A DNA stretch of 64,000 nt from Oligoflexia bacterium. GTDB lineage: Bacteria > Bdellovibrionota > UBA1018. The stretch lies in NCBI GenBank assembly GCA_963758495.1, contig CAVWVI010000001.1, forward strand, positions 192,001-256,000, in the 5' to 3' direction. Within the stretch, counting starts at the first letter, position 1. Every line of letters starts with the position of its first letter. The notes under the pieces are model-generated. The model did not search any database. It had not been told where the DNA came from and was given only the letters and a program-made list of their open reading frames with translations. A program made the position numbers and the translations under genes. Shown here in pieces: positions 2 through 61,656 of the stretch.

Positions 2-1204
2 CAACTCATAGGAACCACCCAACCTTGGCCTTGGTACGGAATTCCCTCTGGAGTCTACTTAGTGAATCCTGGAATGAGTATTTGGGTATTTACTCTCTTA
101 GCAAAACTTTTTGGAATCCACCAACCCACTTCCTTAGCTCATGCCGTTCAACTCTTTGCACTTCTAGGAATTTGCCTCGTCATTCCTTTCACTTTACGAT
201 TTGTAGCAGACGAAGAAAAAAGAGACTGGCTTTGGGCTTATGCTTTAGCCATGGTGAACCCTTTTTTGATTTTGTATCAAAGAAAACTTTGGCCCGAGCC
301 ATTCCTTCCCTTCTTTACGATGCTCACGCTCATGGGATGGTGGAAAAGAGATCAGAAATGGGGAGCTTTTCTCTGGGGGATCATTGGTGCTTGCCTTGGG
401 CAAATCCATATGAGTGGATTTTTCTTTGGGGCAGCGCTTTTTCTCTGGACTGCCGTGTTCGGTAAAAGGCTCAAAGTCAAAGCTCAGGAAACTCGGTGGA
501 AATGGTGGCTCATTGGATCCACACTCGGTGCTCTGCCTCTCATTCCATGGCTCTCCTATATCCTTCAACATCCGATTCATGGGAGCATGAGTGCAGGTTG
601 GAATGAAATCATTCAGTTCAAATACTGGGCTTTTTGGATCACCGATGCCTTGGGACTTCACCTCGGAAATCCTCTCGGCCTCCTTCGTGGCCCTCAGTTG
701 TCACAGATTTCAGATTTTATTCGTTATCCGATCCTCTTTGAACACGCTACTTATCTCGTGGGATTAGCTCATTTACTCACAGCCTTCCTAGCAGTTTGGA
801 TTTTCAGTCGATGGCTCAAGTCTCATAGAGTATCCGGTACAGTATCCGGTACAGTATCCGGTACAGTATCCGGTACGTTATCTGGTTCCGATTTTGAGAT
901 CATCGGATACAATTCTGAGACTGCTTTCGTGCAAAATTCAGCGCTCTGGGGATGTGGGATTCTCTTGACCCTCACAGGTGTGGTCATCCGTCGTTACTAT
1001 ATGACAATTACCTTTCCTCTTGAATTCATTTTCTGGGTGCGCATGGCCCGTACAGATACAAAACTAGGTCAAAAACTGCTGACTGCCTTATGGATCTGCG
1101 AATTCTTGATTTCAGCCCATTTCGTCGGCTATATTCATGTCAATCAGGGTTCGATCGATGGGGATTATGGAAAAGCGTATCATCTGATCAAAAACAATCA
1201 TTAA
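2..1204 (+). CDS. Polytopic membrane protein, probable GT-C/ArnT-like glycosyltransferase (5' end lies before the window)
   Basis: Frame is open from base 2; many hydrophobic helices; NPF..LYQRKLW and QIHMSG motifs resemble ArnT/PMT-like proteins; contains a 4x VSGT repeat. Confidence 0.5.
   Translation, partial: QLIGTTQPWPWYGIPSGVYLVNPGMSIWVFTLLAKLFGIHQPTSLAHAVQLFALLGICLVIPFTLRFVADEEKRDWLWAYALAMVNPFLILYQRKLWPEPFLPFFTMLTLMGWWKRDQKWGAFLWGIIGACLGQIHMSGFFFGAALFLWTAVFGKRLKVKAQETRWKWWLIGSTLGALPLIPWLSYILQHPIHGSMSAGWNEIIQFKYWAFWITDALGLHLGNPLGLLRGPQLSQISDFIRYPILFEHATYLVGLAHLLTAFLAVWIFSRWLKSHRVSGTVSGTVSGTVSGTLSGSDFEIIGYNSETAFVQNSALWGCGILLTLTGVVIRRYYMTITFPLEFIFWVRMARTDTKLGQKLLTALWICEFLISAHFVGYIHVNQGSIDGDYGKAYHLIKNNH
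829..876 (+). repeat. Tandem repeat (AGTATCCGGTAC)x4, in frame (VSGT)
   Basis: Four exact 12-mers read directly from the sequence. Confidence 0.95.
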
Positions 1205-6935: not shown

Positions 6936-7010
6936 TTGATAACAATTCGCCTTCCATCGGAAACCATTGCAAAGCTGAAATCCATGGCAACAAAGGAAGG
7001 ACTACCTTAG
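6936..7010 (+). pseudogene. Remnant of a CopG/BrnA-type ribbon-helix-helix antitoxin gene at the left junction of the HNH element
   Basis: Translates LITIRLPSETIAKLKSMATKEGLP*Q, matching the IxIRL...LK..A...GLPYQ pattern. Confidence 0.5.
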
Positions 7011-8587
7011 CAATTGAGGTCATATTCGAGGCACTCCGGGCGACTTAATGGAAGTGCTTATTTTTTTCGGGTGAGGCTGGGCGTGCGATGTATGTCCTAT
7101 AAATCGCATGACCGCAGAAGTGCATTGTGAATTTTTATTTTTAAAGACAGCTCTGCTGTACCAATGCTTTTACCAGTTACTTCCCGCGTCGGAAGTGAAC
7201 CTGAAAAAAAATGAAGGGACACTCATTTTTCGCTTGCGACCCTGACGCAGAGGGAAATTTAAAATCCAATCATCTGTCCCAGATCTGAGTTAAAAGAATA
7301 GCGAGACGCAATAAGGTGCCTCACAGTGGGAGCCAGAAATATCGAGTATGCCCCGGGATTATCAGATTTTTGTAAGTGCATAAAAATCGATTAAACGCTT
7401 AAAATTCAGCCCAAAATTCTGTGTTAAAATACTTTTCACGTATGGAAAAACTTGAAGTATTTCTGGAAAATGTAGAACTCAAAAAGCTCACCGATCAACA
7501 ACTCCATCACAAGATGGTATGGACTTCTCAAAAAGAGCGAGAAATCACCGCTCAGATGATCAGCATGATTGCTGAAGCTGCAAAGAGGAGATTTTATCTC
7601 GACTTAGAGTTTGGAACACTCTTTGACTATATGACCATTGGTTTACATTATAGTGCAGCAGCTGCACAGCGAAGAATCAGCGCTGCTCGGATTACAGTGG
7701 AAGTCCCCGAAGTTAAAACCCAGATTTTAGATGGAAGTCTGACCCTTTCTGCGCTGGCGCAAGCAGAGAAGTTTTTCAGAAATGAACAAAAGAATGACCA
7801 CACCCTCAACTTGGATGAGAAGAAAAACGTCCTACAACAGCTGAAAAATAAGAGTTCAAGAGAAGCAGAAAAGACGTTACTCCAGATGTCCTCCGCTCCT
7901 GAGCAACTGCAGCCTGAAAAAATAAAACCTATGAATGCTGAGTTGAGTCAGATCACGTTCAATGCCAACTCAGAGTTTATGGCGCTTTTGGGGGAGTCCC
8001 GTGGATTGCTCGGGCATCAAATGCCAGGCGCATCGATTGCGGAAGTCTTAGCTGAGATGATGAAGCTGGGCCTGAGCGAACTGAAAAAGAAAAAGTTCAA
8101 AGTGAAGTCCACTGTCGAGTCAGTTCAAGTAGCCAAGTCGGAAGAAGCAGAAACTGTAGAAGTGACTTCCCACGCCGGAAGTGGAGTCGCTTCCACGGTA
8201 TCTCATGATTCTGAATACATCACCCATGAAGTCAAAAGAACAGTCTACCAAAGAGATCAAGGTCGTTGCGTGGTTCTCAATCCCAGGACCGGCAAACCTT
8301 GTGGGAGTATGACATTTCTTGAATATGATCACTTTCCAATCCCGCGAGCCAAAGGTGGGCCTTCGACGGCATTGAACTTAAGACTCAGCTGTAGGACTTG
8401 CAACAGACTGCACGCAGTGCAATCCTATGGAAGAGCACATGTTTTAAAATATATGGAATCACCCGAGACTCAATTCATCAGGTAGAAGCTCGCGCAAGCT
8501 AGAGAACAATTGATCGAACTCCATCACGTCGCACGGAGTGCCTCGAATATAATCTAAATTCCGGTGGCGGCCGCACTGGTTTGAAGT
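6998..8587 (+). mobile_element. 1,590-bp repeated element, copy 1, encoding an HNH nuclease
   Basis: Near-identical inverted copy at 61657-63246 with unrelated flanks; 23-bp inverted repeat 7022-7044/8528-8550 (22/23 match). Confidence 0.85.
7442..8485 (+). CDS. DUF222-like N-terminal helical domain plus C-terminal zinc-binding HNH endonuclease
   Basis: VYQRDQGRC..CGS..FLEYDH..PRAKGG..T..NLRLSCRTCNRLH; likely start ATG 7442 (ORF is open from GTG 7421). Confidence 0.88.
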   Translation: MEKLEVFLENVELKKLTDQQLHHKMVWTSQKEREITAQMISMIAEAAKRRFYLDLEFGTLFDYMTIGLHYSAAAAQRRISAARITVEVPEVKTQILDGSLTLSALAQAEKFFRNEQKNDHTLNLDEKKNVLQQLKNKSSREAEKTLLQMSSAPEQLQPEKIKPMNAELSQITFNANSEFMALLGESRGLLGHQMPGASIAEVLAEMMKLGLSELKKKKFKVKSTVESVQVAKSEEAETVEVTSHAGSGVASTVSHDSEYITHEVKRTVYQRDQGRCVVLNPRTGKPCGSMTFLEYDHFPIPRAKGGPSTALNLRLSCRTCNRLHAVQSYGRAHVLKYMESPETQFIR

Positions 8588-8679
8588 CTACCTTAAAAGA
8601 ACCTTAACTTTTGCTAACTTTACATGTGCGTCATTTTTGCTAAGACGCGCACTAGGAGCAGCAGAAGCTGGAATGAGTA

Positions 8680-15493: not shown

Positions 15494-17554
15494 TTAAAGC
15501 CGCATTTCAAGACTCGAGTAAACTGCTCTTCCTGGTCCGCCTGGCATAGTATTCACTCCGGGAGTATAATAAGTTGGAACATAATAGGCAGCATCCAATA
15601 GATTGGTTCCATATAAGGCCAGTTTCATATCAGGTGTAGAGCTACTCAAGGAAAGAAGCTGTTTCAAATTCAATGTCACATTTGCCGTTAAGAGATTATA
15701 GGCAGTTGATGCAGGATTTGTGACCAAATTGGCTGGAAAAGCAATCGCGTTACTCCCGTAAGCAGTGATATAGGAATCAAACACGCCCAGAGAAACTGAC
15801 TTCAGCTCATACCCCACTCCCGCCTTTGCGATCCAAGAGGGTGTGAACGAGACCCCGGTATTGCCATTTCCATCATTACTTTCTTGATAGGTAAGAGAAC
15901 CTAGAAAATAAATATTACTGGTAGGTAAATATTTGGATTCTAATTCCATGCCCATTAAATTTAACTGCTGTGAATTATAATAAGACCTGTTAGTCGCACT
16001 TCCTATTTGTGGTTCTTGAACAATTAAGCTGGACTGATGACTATAGAAAAAACCGAGAGAGGATTGAAAACTGGGGTGATTATAAAAGAATTGAAGGTCT
16101 GCTGTATCGATGAATTCAGGAGATAAACTGGGATTACCTACCACATTGATACCACCTCCCAGCGGGATACTTGCATCTGTTTGAGGAGGTGTAGGAGCAT
16201 TAAATGCTTGTCCATAGAGTGCCTTGAGTCCGAATTCAGGTGTAAAATGAGCCACAGCACCTAAACGTGGCACAAAGGAACCTGTATAAGGGGTTTGATT
16301 GAATTGAGCGCCCGCAATCAATTTAAGACCAGGGGTGAGCTGGTAGTCGAGCTGAGAATAAACAGCATACCAATATTGGACCCAGGCTAGATTCAAGTTG
16401 TCTATTTCACCTGACATTCTGTTGATGACCACTCCTGAAACCAAATTTAAGTTGTCTATCAACTTTCCTCGAACGGTGGTTTCCCATCGACTATCGTTCG
16501 TTCTATATTGATTGATAGCAGTGGGATACCCGAGAGGTTGATTGACTGATGACTTCAAGAGTAAGTCTGTGTATCCCCCGACATTGGAAATATGTGTTTC
16601 TAAGTTCCAATTTTGAGCTAGGTCTAATTTATAACCTAAATCCAAAAAGAATTTAGTATTACTGATCCATCCCGCAGCTCCATCCGTAGGAAGTCTCCAG
16701 TCGTATTGATTCGTGTGGCCGTAAAAAGTAGAAAGCTCCAGATTCTTATAAGCAGCGGTGGTGGTGAACCCTACGTTTCCATGTTGGTAGGCATTCCCTG
16801 AAACATTGTGTCCGGTTACAGAGTTAGCGCTTAATAGCCAGCCGTCTGTGTCTAAATATTTCAAGGCACTACTCACTCTTAAACCCGTTTCATCTGACTG
16901 AAAGTTTGAATAAGCTTCCACTGCTTTCGTATTAAAAGTGCCGTATTTGGGCGCAACCGATAAATGAACCCCTTGATCCTTTTTAGTGATAATATTGATC
17001 ACACCAGAGTATGCATTGGTGCCGTAGAGGACTGAGCCGGGTCCTTTTACAATTTCTATCTGCTGAATGGCTGAAATTGGAAAAGAAGAATAAATAGCTT
17101 GATTATAGGCTCCTACATAACTATCTCGATTGATAGGATTCCCATCCATCAGGACAAGCATATGAGTATCGAATCCTCGGGGGGTATCTCCACGAACCAG
17201 AATGGTATTATTATTGGTGAAGGTCTCATAGATAGGTAAAACACTTGCGACACGGGAAAGTAACTCCGTCAAATCATTTGCACCAAATAATTCTATTTCA
17301 TGTGCTGTAATAACGGACACGACTCCGGGGGCGTCATAAGAGTTCTCGACTCGCTTAGAAGAAGTCGTTACATTAAGATTCATAAGATCTTCTAAGCTGA
17401 GATCCGACACACTCCCTTTACCAGCTGGAGGAATCAATACATCCGAACTCTCGATTTTATCGTTTGCCCCAGCAAAATGAACGCTGGAAAATACAAGCAA
17501 ACAAAAAATAAACAATGAAAAACCTTTGCGAATAAGGCCCAAGAAATGACACAT
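15494..17554 (-). CDS. TonB-dependent outer-membrane receptor
   Basis: LSLEDLMNLNVTTSSK, plug motif IEIVKGPGSVLYGTNAYSGVINIITK, C-terminal PGRAVY strand; start uncertain (17554 or 17593). Confidence 0.9.
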   Translation of the reverse strand: MCHFLGLIRKGFSLFIFCLLVFSSVHFAGANDKIESSDVLIPPAGKGSVSDLSLEDLMNLNVTTSSKRVENSYDAPGVVSVITAHEIELFGANDLTELLSRVASVLPIYETFTNNNTILVRGDTPRGFDTHMLVLMDGNPINRDSYVGAYNQAIYSSFPISAIQQIEIVKGPGSVLYGTNAYSGVINIITKKDQGVHLSVAPKYGTFNTKAVEAYSNFQSDETGLRVSSALKYLDTDGWLLSANSVTGHNVSGNAYQHGNVGFTTTAAYKNLELSTFYGHTNQYDWRLPTDGAAGWISNTKFFLDLGYKLDLAQNWNLETHISNVGGYTDLLLKSSVNQPLGYPTAINQYRTNDSRWETTVRGKLIDNLNLVSGVVINRMSGEIDNLNLAWVQYWYAVYSQLDYQLTPGLKLIAGAQFNQTPYTGSFVPRLGAVAHFTPEFGLKALYGQAFNAPTPPQTDASIPLGGGINVVGNPSLSPEFIDTADLQFFYNHPSFQSSLGFFYSHQSSLIVQEPQIGSATNRSYYNSQQLNLMGMELESKYLPTSNIYFLGSLTYQESNDGNGNTGVSFTPSWIAKAGVGYELKSVSLGVFDSYITAYGSNAIAFPANLVTNPASTAYNLLTANVTLNLKQLLSLSSSTPDMKLALYGTNLLDAAYYVPTYYTPGVNTMPGGPGRAVYSSLEMRL

Positions 17555-60294: not shown

Positions 60295-61653
60295 ATGAGT
60301 CAATCAAATATAGATGTACGAGGGTATACCAGCTTTAATCGTCCCGTCTCAAGGCAACTTCAAGTCCTTTCGATCCTCGTCGATGGATCTATTGTTCTAT
60401 TTATTGGCCTAGTCGTACTAGAATTATTGAAGATCACACCTCTTCCAAAAATGAGTCATGTAGTGCTATGGATCTTCTTGGGCGCTTCATACTGGTTTCT
60501 TCAAAAAGGTCTATTTAAAGTAACTTTAGGCGAACGTTGCTGGCAAATCAGACCCAAGGGAACAAAACTCTACGAATGTGATTATTTAAAGCCTGCCTCT
60601 ATTTTCATGAGCTGTCTTTTAACTACCTTCTCGATTCTCATCTCTTATTCAACCTTCAAGAAAATCGTATTTCAAAATCCAGTCTGGCTCTCCGCGTCCT
60701 TATGGAACTTCGAGCCCTTCATCCCTTCTTCCAAAGATTGGATGGTGACTCCGTTTTTTTATGTCATGGGTGGGTGGCCAAAAACATTCAATGGCAAGCC
60801 CATTCTTTATTCACTCCCTTACGAGAAAGGCCCTCCTTCAAGATTTATTGGACATACTGTCGCTTATTGGGATGCTCCAGATATTAAACTCGTTTTGGAA
60901 GGCCCAAAAACCCCAGACAAAGCTGGGAGTCAAAAGGAACTCAAAGAATGTATTCTGGGTCATGCTTTTCCTTCTACTCACTCTATTTACTCTCTTGATT
61001 CGGCTTATCATTGCATATTTGCACGCGAGCAAGCTCTCACCCGACATATTAAAGAGCTTGAAGCGGCTCACCCTTCTTCCTGGACGCTTAAATGGTTTAT
61101 GGTTAATAATGCAATGCTACCCCCCGAAGATCGGCCTCAAGGAATCTATTTGAGTGCTTCAGGTGATACCTGGACTCAAGATCGCTTTATCCTGATCAAC
61201 TCTCAGGGAATTCACCAAACCCTCATTCTAACTCGACCCAAAAATGAATCCGGAAGCCTCGCCTTTGATCTCATACAAAAAACGGTGAGAAGCTTACGCA
61301 GCTTTAAAGAACTCGACCCCGGTCGAGCCTGGGTCAACCAAGAGCTTGAAGAAGTCCGCCTTCGAGAATTACAAACTAACCAAGACCCTGTTGCGCTTAC
61401 AGCAAATTTAGCAGAAATTCAAAGCCTCCTTATTTCTAGAATTTCAGTCGAACCTGGAAGCTTTGACTCCTATTTTCATTTAGCGGGAACTTCCATGATA
61501 CTACTAAAAAGCTTGAACGCGAGTCGCGAGAAAAAGCTCTCCATTGCACTCCAGAACCTCCAAAATGCTTACCATTTTGCTCAAGACGTTGCCCCCGCTG
61601 ATCCCCGAATCAATCTCATGCAAAATCTTATAGTTGAGGCTAAGAAGTTTTAG
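60295..61653 (+). CDS. Hypothetical membrane protein
   Basis: N-terminal TM helices (RDD-like TLG motif); AGGAG RBS; helical C-terminus. Confidence 0.65.
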   Translation: MSQSNIDVRGYTSFNRPVSRQLQVLSILVDGSIVLFIGLVVLELLKITPLPKMSHVVLWIFLGASYWFLQKGLFKVTLGERCWQIRPKGTKLYECDYLKPASIFMSCLLTTFSILISYSTFKKIVFQNPVWLSASLWNFEPFIPSSKDWMVTPFFYVMGGWPKTFNGKPILYSLPYEKGPPSRFIGHTVAYWDAPDIKLVLEGPKTPDKAGSQKELKECILGHAFPSTHSIYSLDSAYHCIFAREQALTRHIKELEAAHPSSWTLKWFMVNNAMLPPEDRPQGIYLSASGDTWTQDRFILINSQGIHQTLILTRPKNESGSLAFDLIQKTVRSLRSFKELDPGRAWVNQELEEVRLRELQTNQDPVALTANLAEIQSLLISRISVEPGSFDSYFHLAGTSMILLKSLNASREKKLSIALQNLQNAYHFAQDVAPADPRINLMQNLIVEAKKF

Positions 61654-61656
61654 CGA

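Follow-up and report, generated by a model that had tools for sequence, protein, structure and literature searches.

How did a gene for a putative HNH nuclease, on a unit in which no transposase is recognisable, come to stand at two unrelated places of the same genome? The window, i.e. the whole analysed stretch of 64,000 nucleotides, contains two copies of this unit (Table 1), and the original prediction that they are of the same length, nearly identical, recently duplicated and set in unrelated flanks agrees with direct comparison. Each copy is 1,590 bp long, and the two differ by 11 substitutions and no indel (99.3% identity), four of the substitutions being coding, all of them residue-changing, and seven non-coding. 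The copies lie 53 kb apart, inverted relative to each other. As a whole, the unit is genuine: it belongs to an HNH family that is known yet unexplained, it was duplicated recently, and the question is by what route the second copy arose.

BLASTN against the full 3.66-Mb, 5-contig assembly, which is about 92% complete, found these two full-length copies only. The presence of just two close copies would suit an assembly artefact, one locus having been placed twice, an alternative that had been raised together with the prediction. This explanation is very improbable, since the 11 substitutions come without any indel, comparison with P0002 shows derived residues private to each copy, the flanks are unique with intact neighbouring genes, and a separate short duplication is found at each site; a 75%-identical relative also occurs in several near-identical copies (a cluster of four) in another assembly. 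As for the ragged boundaries that would have counted against an element, the right boundary is sharp, at 8587, and the left one has an uncertainty of about 12 bp, the true tip lying somewhere in 6998-7011. Copy 1 has metF (PF02219) on one side and a gene without assignment on the other; the 452-aa gene next to copy 2 is likewise unassigned, and motA is two genes away. In a search of 60 genomes for close DNA relatives, a single weak match of 44 bp was obtained, while related loci were found once in metagenome contigs and not at all in genome contigs (single-protein query) or viral contigs. The promoter and terminator scan remained at chance level. Elsewhere in the window, positions 15494-17395, covering most of a TonB-dependent receptor gene, are 97.6% identical to G000:C3:1570024-1571925, a pair taken to be a recent duplication or gene conversion.

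Table 1. Coordinates in the window of the duplicated unit and its features, with the residue ranges of the domains predicted in the encoded protein.
Feature	Position	Strand	Remarks
Copy 1 of the duplicated unit	6998..8587	+	BLASTN and direct comparison
Copy 2 of the duplicated unit	61657..63246	-	directly 3' of a stop codon, that of the 452-aa gene at 60295-61653
HNH gene, copy 1	7442..8485	+	347 aa from ATG at 7442
Longer reading of the same ORF	7421-8485	+	GTG start, 354 aa
HNH gene, copy 2	61759..62802	-	4 aa differences from copy 1
ParB/KorB-like helical domain (predicted)	residues about 31-155		fold match 6s6h, Z 6.2, rmsd 3.7 over 101
Ribbon-helix-helix-like segment (predicted)	residues about 166-222		fold match 8u12, Z 5.2, rmsd 2.7 over 50
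Linker	between ribbon-helix-helix segment and HNH		low model confidence
Zn-HNH nuclease (predicted)	residues about 254-333		Z 6.7; C276, C287, H297, N312, C317, N321
Left R arm, copy 1	7010..7077	+	profile E 1.8e-10; 81-88% to other R arms; contains 7012-7052
Right R arm, copy 1	8519..8594	-	profile E 2.2e-11; inward-facing; contains 8520-8560
Left R arm, copy 2	63167..63234	-	profile E 1e-9
Right R arm, copy 2	61657..61725	+	profile E 3.5e-9
8-bp direct repeat CTACCTTA, left, copy 1	7002..7009	+	within GGRCTACCTT
8-bp direct repeat CTACCTTA, right, copy 1	8588..8595	+	exact match to left copy
GCGAA 5-bp duplication, copy 2	61653..61657	+	overlaps element bases in part
GCGAA partner, copy 2	63233..63237	+	sequence
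Upstream palindrome, copy 1	7179..7196		18 bp, ACTTCC-N6-GGAAGT, 263 bp upstream of ATG
Linker palindrome, copy 1	8165..8182		second copy, in linker-coding DNA
Upstream palindrome, copy 2	63048..63065		exact genome match
Linker palindrome, copy 2	62062..62079		exact genome match

Each copy contains a single long ORF, an HNH gene whose product matches PF01844 with 24.7 bits against a cut-off of 21.4 and, as had been claimed, no transposase, recombinase or reverse transcriptase family was found in this protein at E<=1 in either Pfam or NCBIfam. Sub-threshold NCBIfam matches to IscB and Cas9d were confined to the HNH stretch (21 bits vs. a cut-off of 175 for the IscB model), and no RuvC domain was detected in the window protein. 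The structure predicted from 141 sequences (pLDDT 89, pTM 0.79) comprises putative ParB-like, ribbon-helix-helix and HNH domains, names that are to be taken as leads, the Z values of 5-6.7 being middling according to the tool's own note. Foldseek searches of the model against the PDB gave nothing at E<=0.001, and neither a transposase nor a recombinase fold was present among the best 50 fold matches listed. In the alignment of the 141 relatives, mostly 27-55% identical, no variation was seen at C276, C287, H297, G306 and C317 and almost none at N312 and N321; 131 of these relatives have an HNH domain match. The nuclease residues of the predicted HNH domain are intact in the window protein. In comparison with the 69% relative L014, dN/dS is 0.11 over the N-terminal part and 0.19 over the HNH domain, and two dispersed paralogues of the window genome (G000) give 0.12; judging by these values, the DUF222-like HNH family is under purifying selection. 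Between the two copies of the unit themselves, four non-synonymous and no synonymous changes were counted; with every coding difference non-synonymous, nothing points to selection after the duplication.

The label DUF222-like fits the family better than it fits the window protein, in which Pfam found no PF02720 match: 43 of the 141 relatives have one at E<=0.01 (best 7.5e-7), sub-cut-off matches also turned up, and the ESM Atlas gave, as a lead, a DUF222 cluster at 0.96, of which 12% of the members are annotated. Of 60 genomes searched from the same taxonomic family, 43 contain members according to a family profile, with 15 matches in G000 and up to 39 in G017. Four other, fully searched genomes hold 19, 39, 28 and 15 matches at E<=1e-30, 83 of these 101 having no internal stop, and a library clustered at 50% identity contains 5,744 family clusters at the same threshold; the relatives with named hosts come mostly from Bdellovibrionota. 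The most similar family pairs (14 best pairs per genome, four genomes) are about 68-89% identical, apart from one row at 100% made of overlapping neighbouring loci, and were drawn from fragmented assemblies, which conceal very recent copies. In such pairs, the common DNA begins ~40-500 bp before the gene and stops near the gene's end, and the outer ends are not common.

Inverted flanks were found in 10 of 57 usable family loci, the window locus being one of the ten, vs. 6 of 250 ordinary genes and none of 57 mismatched pairs. The usable loci were taken from 77, of which 20 were dropped for short flanks or partial matches, and amount to 54 distinct ones after removal of three duplicates. For the four-genome set, the corresponding figure is 7 of 69 usable loci, out of 92. 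Inverted flanks are, on these counts, enriched in the HNH family, yet uncommon.

Several further arrangements were observed around the paralogues of the window genome. At G000:C4:555914-557429, an HNH paralogue lies inside a 198-bp, 79% inverted repeat unrelated to R, the repeat described below. The flanks of a partial HNH paralogue (G000:C4:346266-347637) stand close together, with the gene absent, at a second locus (C3:534206-534498), possibly an empty-site analogue of that paralogue. The genome's single Y1 (IS200-type) transposase gene, at G000:C1:327121-327594, directly adjoins an HNH paralogue at the latter's broken 3' end. Finally, a two-gene segment of 3.1 kb, adjoining an R-flanked HNH paralogue, is duplicated with 94.7% identity (G000:C4:118912-121994 and C1:383094-386174).

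The unit had been put forward as the best candidate for an undescribed system. The part of this claim that stands is the duplicated, transposase-free HNH unit; that it is a stand-alone system is not supported, since the family is very large and multicopy and the ends derive from a dispersed repeat (named R in this text) that also surrounds other genes. Three features come in addition to those first described, namely the R arms with their 41-bp, 85% subterminal inverted repeat (7012-7052 / 8520-8560), a short duplication proper to each copy, and paired palindromes. According to a profile built without the arms of the element and without element T (see below), the ends of the unit are truncated, inward-facing arms of R, whose likeness continues in the alignment about 7 bp beyond the common end at 8587. 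Of the 21 R arms in the genome, seven have an HNH-family gene no more than 700 bp away, these belonging to the two copies and to one other lineage, and 14 have none within that distance. Elsewhere, inward R pairs enclose gene-free units of 0.5-0.65 kb, a PIN gene, a DDE_Tnp_1 gene and the HNH paralogue C4:117528, and a pair is also located beside a Fic gene. Since they bracket the DDE gene, the PIN gene and gene-free units, R moves, or has moved, without an HNH gene inside. The middles of the gene-free pairs show no similarity to HNH loci, and their interpretation as deleted HNH elements was rejected on that ground. The truncation point varies widely from one R arm to the next; the arms in the window have neither the tip of element T nor the recurring full-length R tip, which borders a truncated HNH paralogue.

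Element T (G000:C1:532940-535280) carries a DDE_Tnp_1 gene with one internal stop and 230-bp, 99% inverted arms, in which R-like DNA lies inside family-typical tips, with a 10-bp duplication; the R profile matches its inner repeat too (E 7e-6 and 1e-4). We take it to be IS4-superfamily-like, even though it scores below all NCBIfam cut-offs; its protein gave no plasmid match. Relatives of the T family measure about 1.76 kb and have ends of about 25 bp, a short CT-N5-CGGAGAGG motif at these ends, duplications of about 10 bp and no R sequence. The idea that R might be transposase T's canonical end was rejected, as the T-family elements of four other genomes have short or no ends and no R. Concerning the real tips of the unit, they are not mutual inverted repeats (0-6 of 15 bases match over all 12 tip pairings tried). 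The original prediction allowed that the ends might match a known IS; the genome carries many IS types, and no tip match was found among the tips of its multicopy elements compared by eye, by fuzzy search of both unit tips, or with the tip of element T. By eye, the R tip resembles what we presume to be dif, att or IS21-like site motifs. No R arm lies near the single Y1 transposase gene. Outside the genome, R had no match over 50 bp in 115 genomes of the order and none in 400 genomes of the phylum (two candidates scored per genome) or in 164 family loci, and none of six viral pattern matches could be extended. R as a structured RNA or single-stranded DNA hairpin is unsupported, Rfam searches giving no family at gathering score, 15 R arms showing no consensus pairs and 10 segments having z-scores of -1.1 to +1.1, and R as a decayed coding sequence is unconvincing, with codon-position conservation of 0.79/0.81/0.76.

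It is in the light of these arms that a mobile insertion cassette has to be considered, R being the long terminal repeat of a MITE or IS family mobilised in trans and the HNH gene a passenger kept by a retention or addiction effect of its own. Such a cassette would account for the inward R pairs around other cargo or none, for the 14 arms without an HNH gene within 700 bp and for the full-length R tip beside a truncated HNH paralogue, as expected of a transposon end, and with many IS types in a genome assembled to about 92%, the partner may simply be missing. We nevertheless consider it unlikely: the window arms lack both the R and T tips, the tips are asymmetric and the duplications of unequal length, T-family elements elsewhere have no R sequence, no IS with R ends was found when the 115 order and 400 phylum genomes were searched with R DNA, and long inverted flanks are exceptional in the family (10/57 and 7/69 loci). 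The inverted repeat of the 69% relative L014 is 35 bp long, differs from that of the unit and starts at the same inner junction, which suggests that the outer arms are exchangeable.

Other observations concern R and its surroundings. A TGCCAATCAAAGGTTGAAAT-like motif recurs at G000:C1:315318, C3:276676, C3:556961, C3:1217044 and C4:118899, these sites being full-length R tips, the break of a truncated HNH paralogue and a position upstream of a gene that we take to be cas3. An island at G000:C3:1214200-1217600 (L096) comprises two R-pair units around the Fic gene and a two-gene pair; its border genes are presumably rsmH and ftsL, and the two-gene pair presumably Xre/RES. One of its R units is bracketed by an imperfect ~35-bp repeat of the end of the Fic gene, upstream of which a long AT-rich palindrome (L096:1733-1801), with sub-threshold matches to microRNA models, is probably an operator or a hairpin. 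Transposase-free cassettes with inverted ends of 55 bp and 192 bp and passenger genes were also seen, at G000:C3:229880-231097 and C4:714429-717061.

The junctions were then compared. That no target-site duplication is common to both copies, as first stated, holds; each copy has its own, CTACCTTA in copy 1 and GCGAA in copy 2. The chance of a given exact 8-mer is about 2e-5, and the duplicated target of copy 2 is 2-5 bp long depending on where the tip is placed, so that over these two junction pairs the lengths are unequal (8 bp vs. 2-5 bp). In the alignment, the R consensus and the 8-bp repeat are in register, so that the latter may be element DNA; its right copy, 8588-8595, could represent duplicated target or else the R arm's outer tip. 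GGRCTACCTT occurs eight times in the genome and is present at both left junctions, where, instead of being a target motif, it may belong to the element as its left tip; CTACCTT is not enriched at the other R junctions (2/12, P=0.11). The variable base 7009 agrees in each copy with that copy's own right flank. DDE cut-and-paste produces symmetric tips and duplications of fixed length, and conservative site-specific integration leaves reciprocal junctions. As far as their sequences indicate, the junctions of the unit fit neither of these processes, and fit a microhomology-guided insertion with staggered ends.

The palindrome located upstream of the gene and again in the DNA coding for the linker has five exact matches in the genome, four of them within the two copies of the unit. 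DNA homology with L014 runs from 7177 to 8525, the upstream palindrome marking its start. Among 101 of 129 family loci (the other 28 having no linker palindrome), the linker palindrome was also found upstream of the same gene in 13, vs. 5 of 606 mismatched pairs, and 10 of these 13 paired upstream palindromes lie at -239 to -324, their sequences being locus-specific. In a stricter test, 15 of 57 loci (counting distinct ones, 14 of 54) had the upstream palindrome again within the same gene, vs. 6 of 285 mismatched pairs and none of 200 ordinary genes; in the four-genome set, paired palindromes were found in 8 of 69. The loci tested are mutually related, so a formal P value overstates, and the pairing is confined to about one locus in eight. 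Out of 179 gene-body palindromes, 100 fall in the linker deciles. In its simplest reading, the palindrome would be a candidate binding site of the encoded protein.

Palindromes upstream of and inside the gene would suit simple autorepression, and with it a passive origin of copy 2: host recombination, through microhomology-mediated duplication or gene conversion among R arms and paralogues, would have placed or homogenised it, the protein being kept for another role, useful to the host or to itself, e.g. as an autoregulated nuclease. R arms cut at many different points are what illegitimate recombination would leave, and REP13E12 loci are described as gene-conversion hotspots in M. tuberculosis (PMC13061034). 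We regard this origin as rather improbable. Up to 39 divergent, mostly intact and scattered copies per genome are hard to explain without active spreading, and the patchy distribution (43 of 60 genomes), the position of the unit copies between housekeeping genes (metF; near motA) and the lack of any match of the three proteins tested to PADLOC defence models (2023 library) also argue against it.

The explanation we prefer, with somewhat less than even confidence, is a nuclease-initiated, microhomology-guided copy-in carried out by host repair, the unit being selfish and independent of a transposase. Its core would begin with the upstream palindrome (7179), include the gene and end at about 8525, and the R arms would be a worn host wrapping acquired around it. 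The protein would bind its own 18-bp palindromes through the ParB-like and ribbon-helix-helix domains, the HNH domain would nick DNA, the end exposed by the nick or break would pair with a short GGRCTACCTT-like match at a new site, and host repair synthesis would insert a copy of the unit there, with short, unequally long duplications as the result; every mechanistic step here is one that we infer.

This copy-in is supported by the asymmetric tips, which match no IS tip examined, by the unequal duplications, with base 7009 agreeing with the right flanks, and by GGRCTACCTT at both left junctions. The invariant catalytic His and three Cys with low dN/dS, the mostly stop-free family copies with a common core and no common outer ends, the pairing of upstream and linker palindromes, and L014, with the same core between different inverted arms, point in the same direction. 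Against it stand the number of junction pairs, two only, with no empty site seen, the 8-bp repeat in register with R, the absence of CTACCTT enrichment at other R junctions and the apparent mobility of R without an HNH gene inside. The palindrome pairing in about one locus in eight, among loci that are not independent, the lack of any sign of selection since the duplication and the middling Z of the fold matches also weigh against it. As a broader proposal, which is possible but which we hold with more doubt, DUF222-like HNH genes would form a class of self-mobile elements without transposase, binding element-specific palindromes, nicking DNA, being copied by microhomology-guided repair and picking up flanking arms; the window pair would be a recent, junction-resolved example of it.

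The DUF222-like HNH family is very large, with dozens of intact copies in some genomes, and no mobility mechanism for it was found in the literature searched. At 1.6 kb, the locus is a compact unit for experiments, coming from an environmental lineage; its junctions are known, a catalytic residue is predicted, and the sequence of its candidate binding site co-varies within loci. Should the nuclease drive the copying, this would amount to a new mode of DNA mobility and could supply small nucleases that are re-targeted naturally; should it not, the unit would be one more passenger cassette.

Among known systems, REP/RAYT and IS200/605 elements differ from the unit in that R has no conserved end hairpin and no Y1 transposase lies near an R arm. 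With homing endonucleases and TnpB/IscB, the unit has in common an HNH domain resembling those of group II intron maturases, IscB and Cas9. In homing and restorative homing, a sequence-specific nuclease promotes the copying of its own locus via host repair (PMC13565253). Unlike in classical homing, the window unit has no intron and reached a non-allelic site, and of the parts of OMEGA systems (IscB/TnpB), neither a RuvC domain nor a guide RNA was detected in it, the latter by Rfam at gathering score or as a consensus fold. The predicted folds of residues 31-155 and 166-222 resemble ParB/KorB DNA-binding domains and ribbon-helix-helix repressors, respectively, and the 18-bp candidate site is similar in size to what we take to be the size of ParB-type sites; the window protein differs by having no CTPase domain or partition context and by its fusion to a nuclease.

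Mobile insertion cassettes are defined in PMC6199540 by inverted arms, a passenger gene, no transposase and a size of 0.7-3 kb. MIC231 and MITEs are similar to the unit in these arms, this passenger gene and this lack of a transposase, and to the R pairs with their varied cargo, whereas in the window the arms are truncated and do not reach the tips, which lack symmetry, the duplications differ in length, and no cognate IS turned up. As for the REP13E12/DUF222-HNH genes of Actinobacteria (PF02720 + PF01844), they are listed as repetitive elements in PMC10589994, appear as phage integration targets in PMC2323391, and are said in PMC13061034 to lack a defined biological function. Inward R arms and paired palindromes are not described for them in the literature searched, the window protein lacks their PF02720 match, and the named hosts of its relatives are Bdellovibrionota. 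Both are nonetheless alike in being multicopy, dispersed single genes that encode a helical N-terminus and a C-terminal HNH domain and are accompanied by no transposase.
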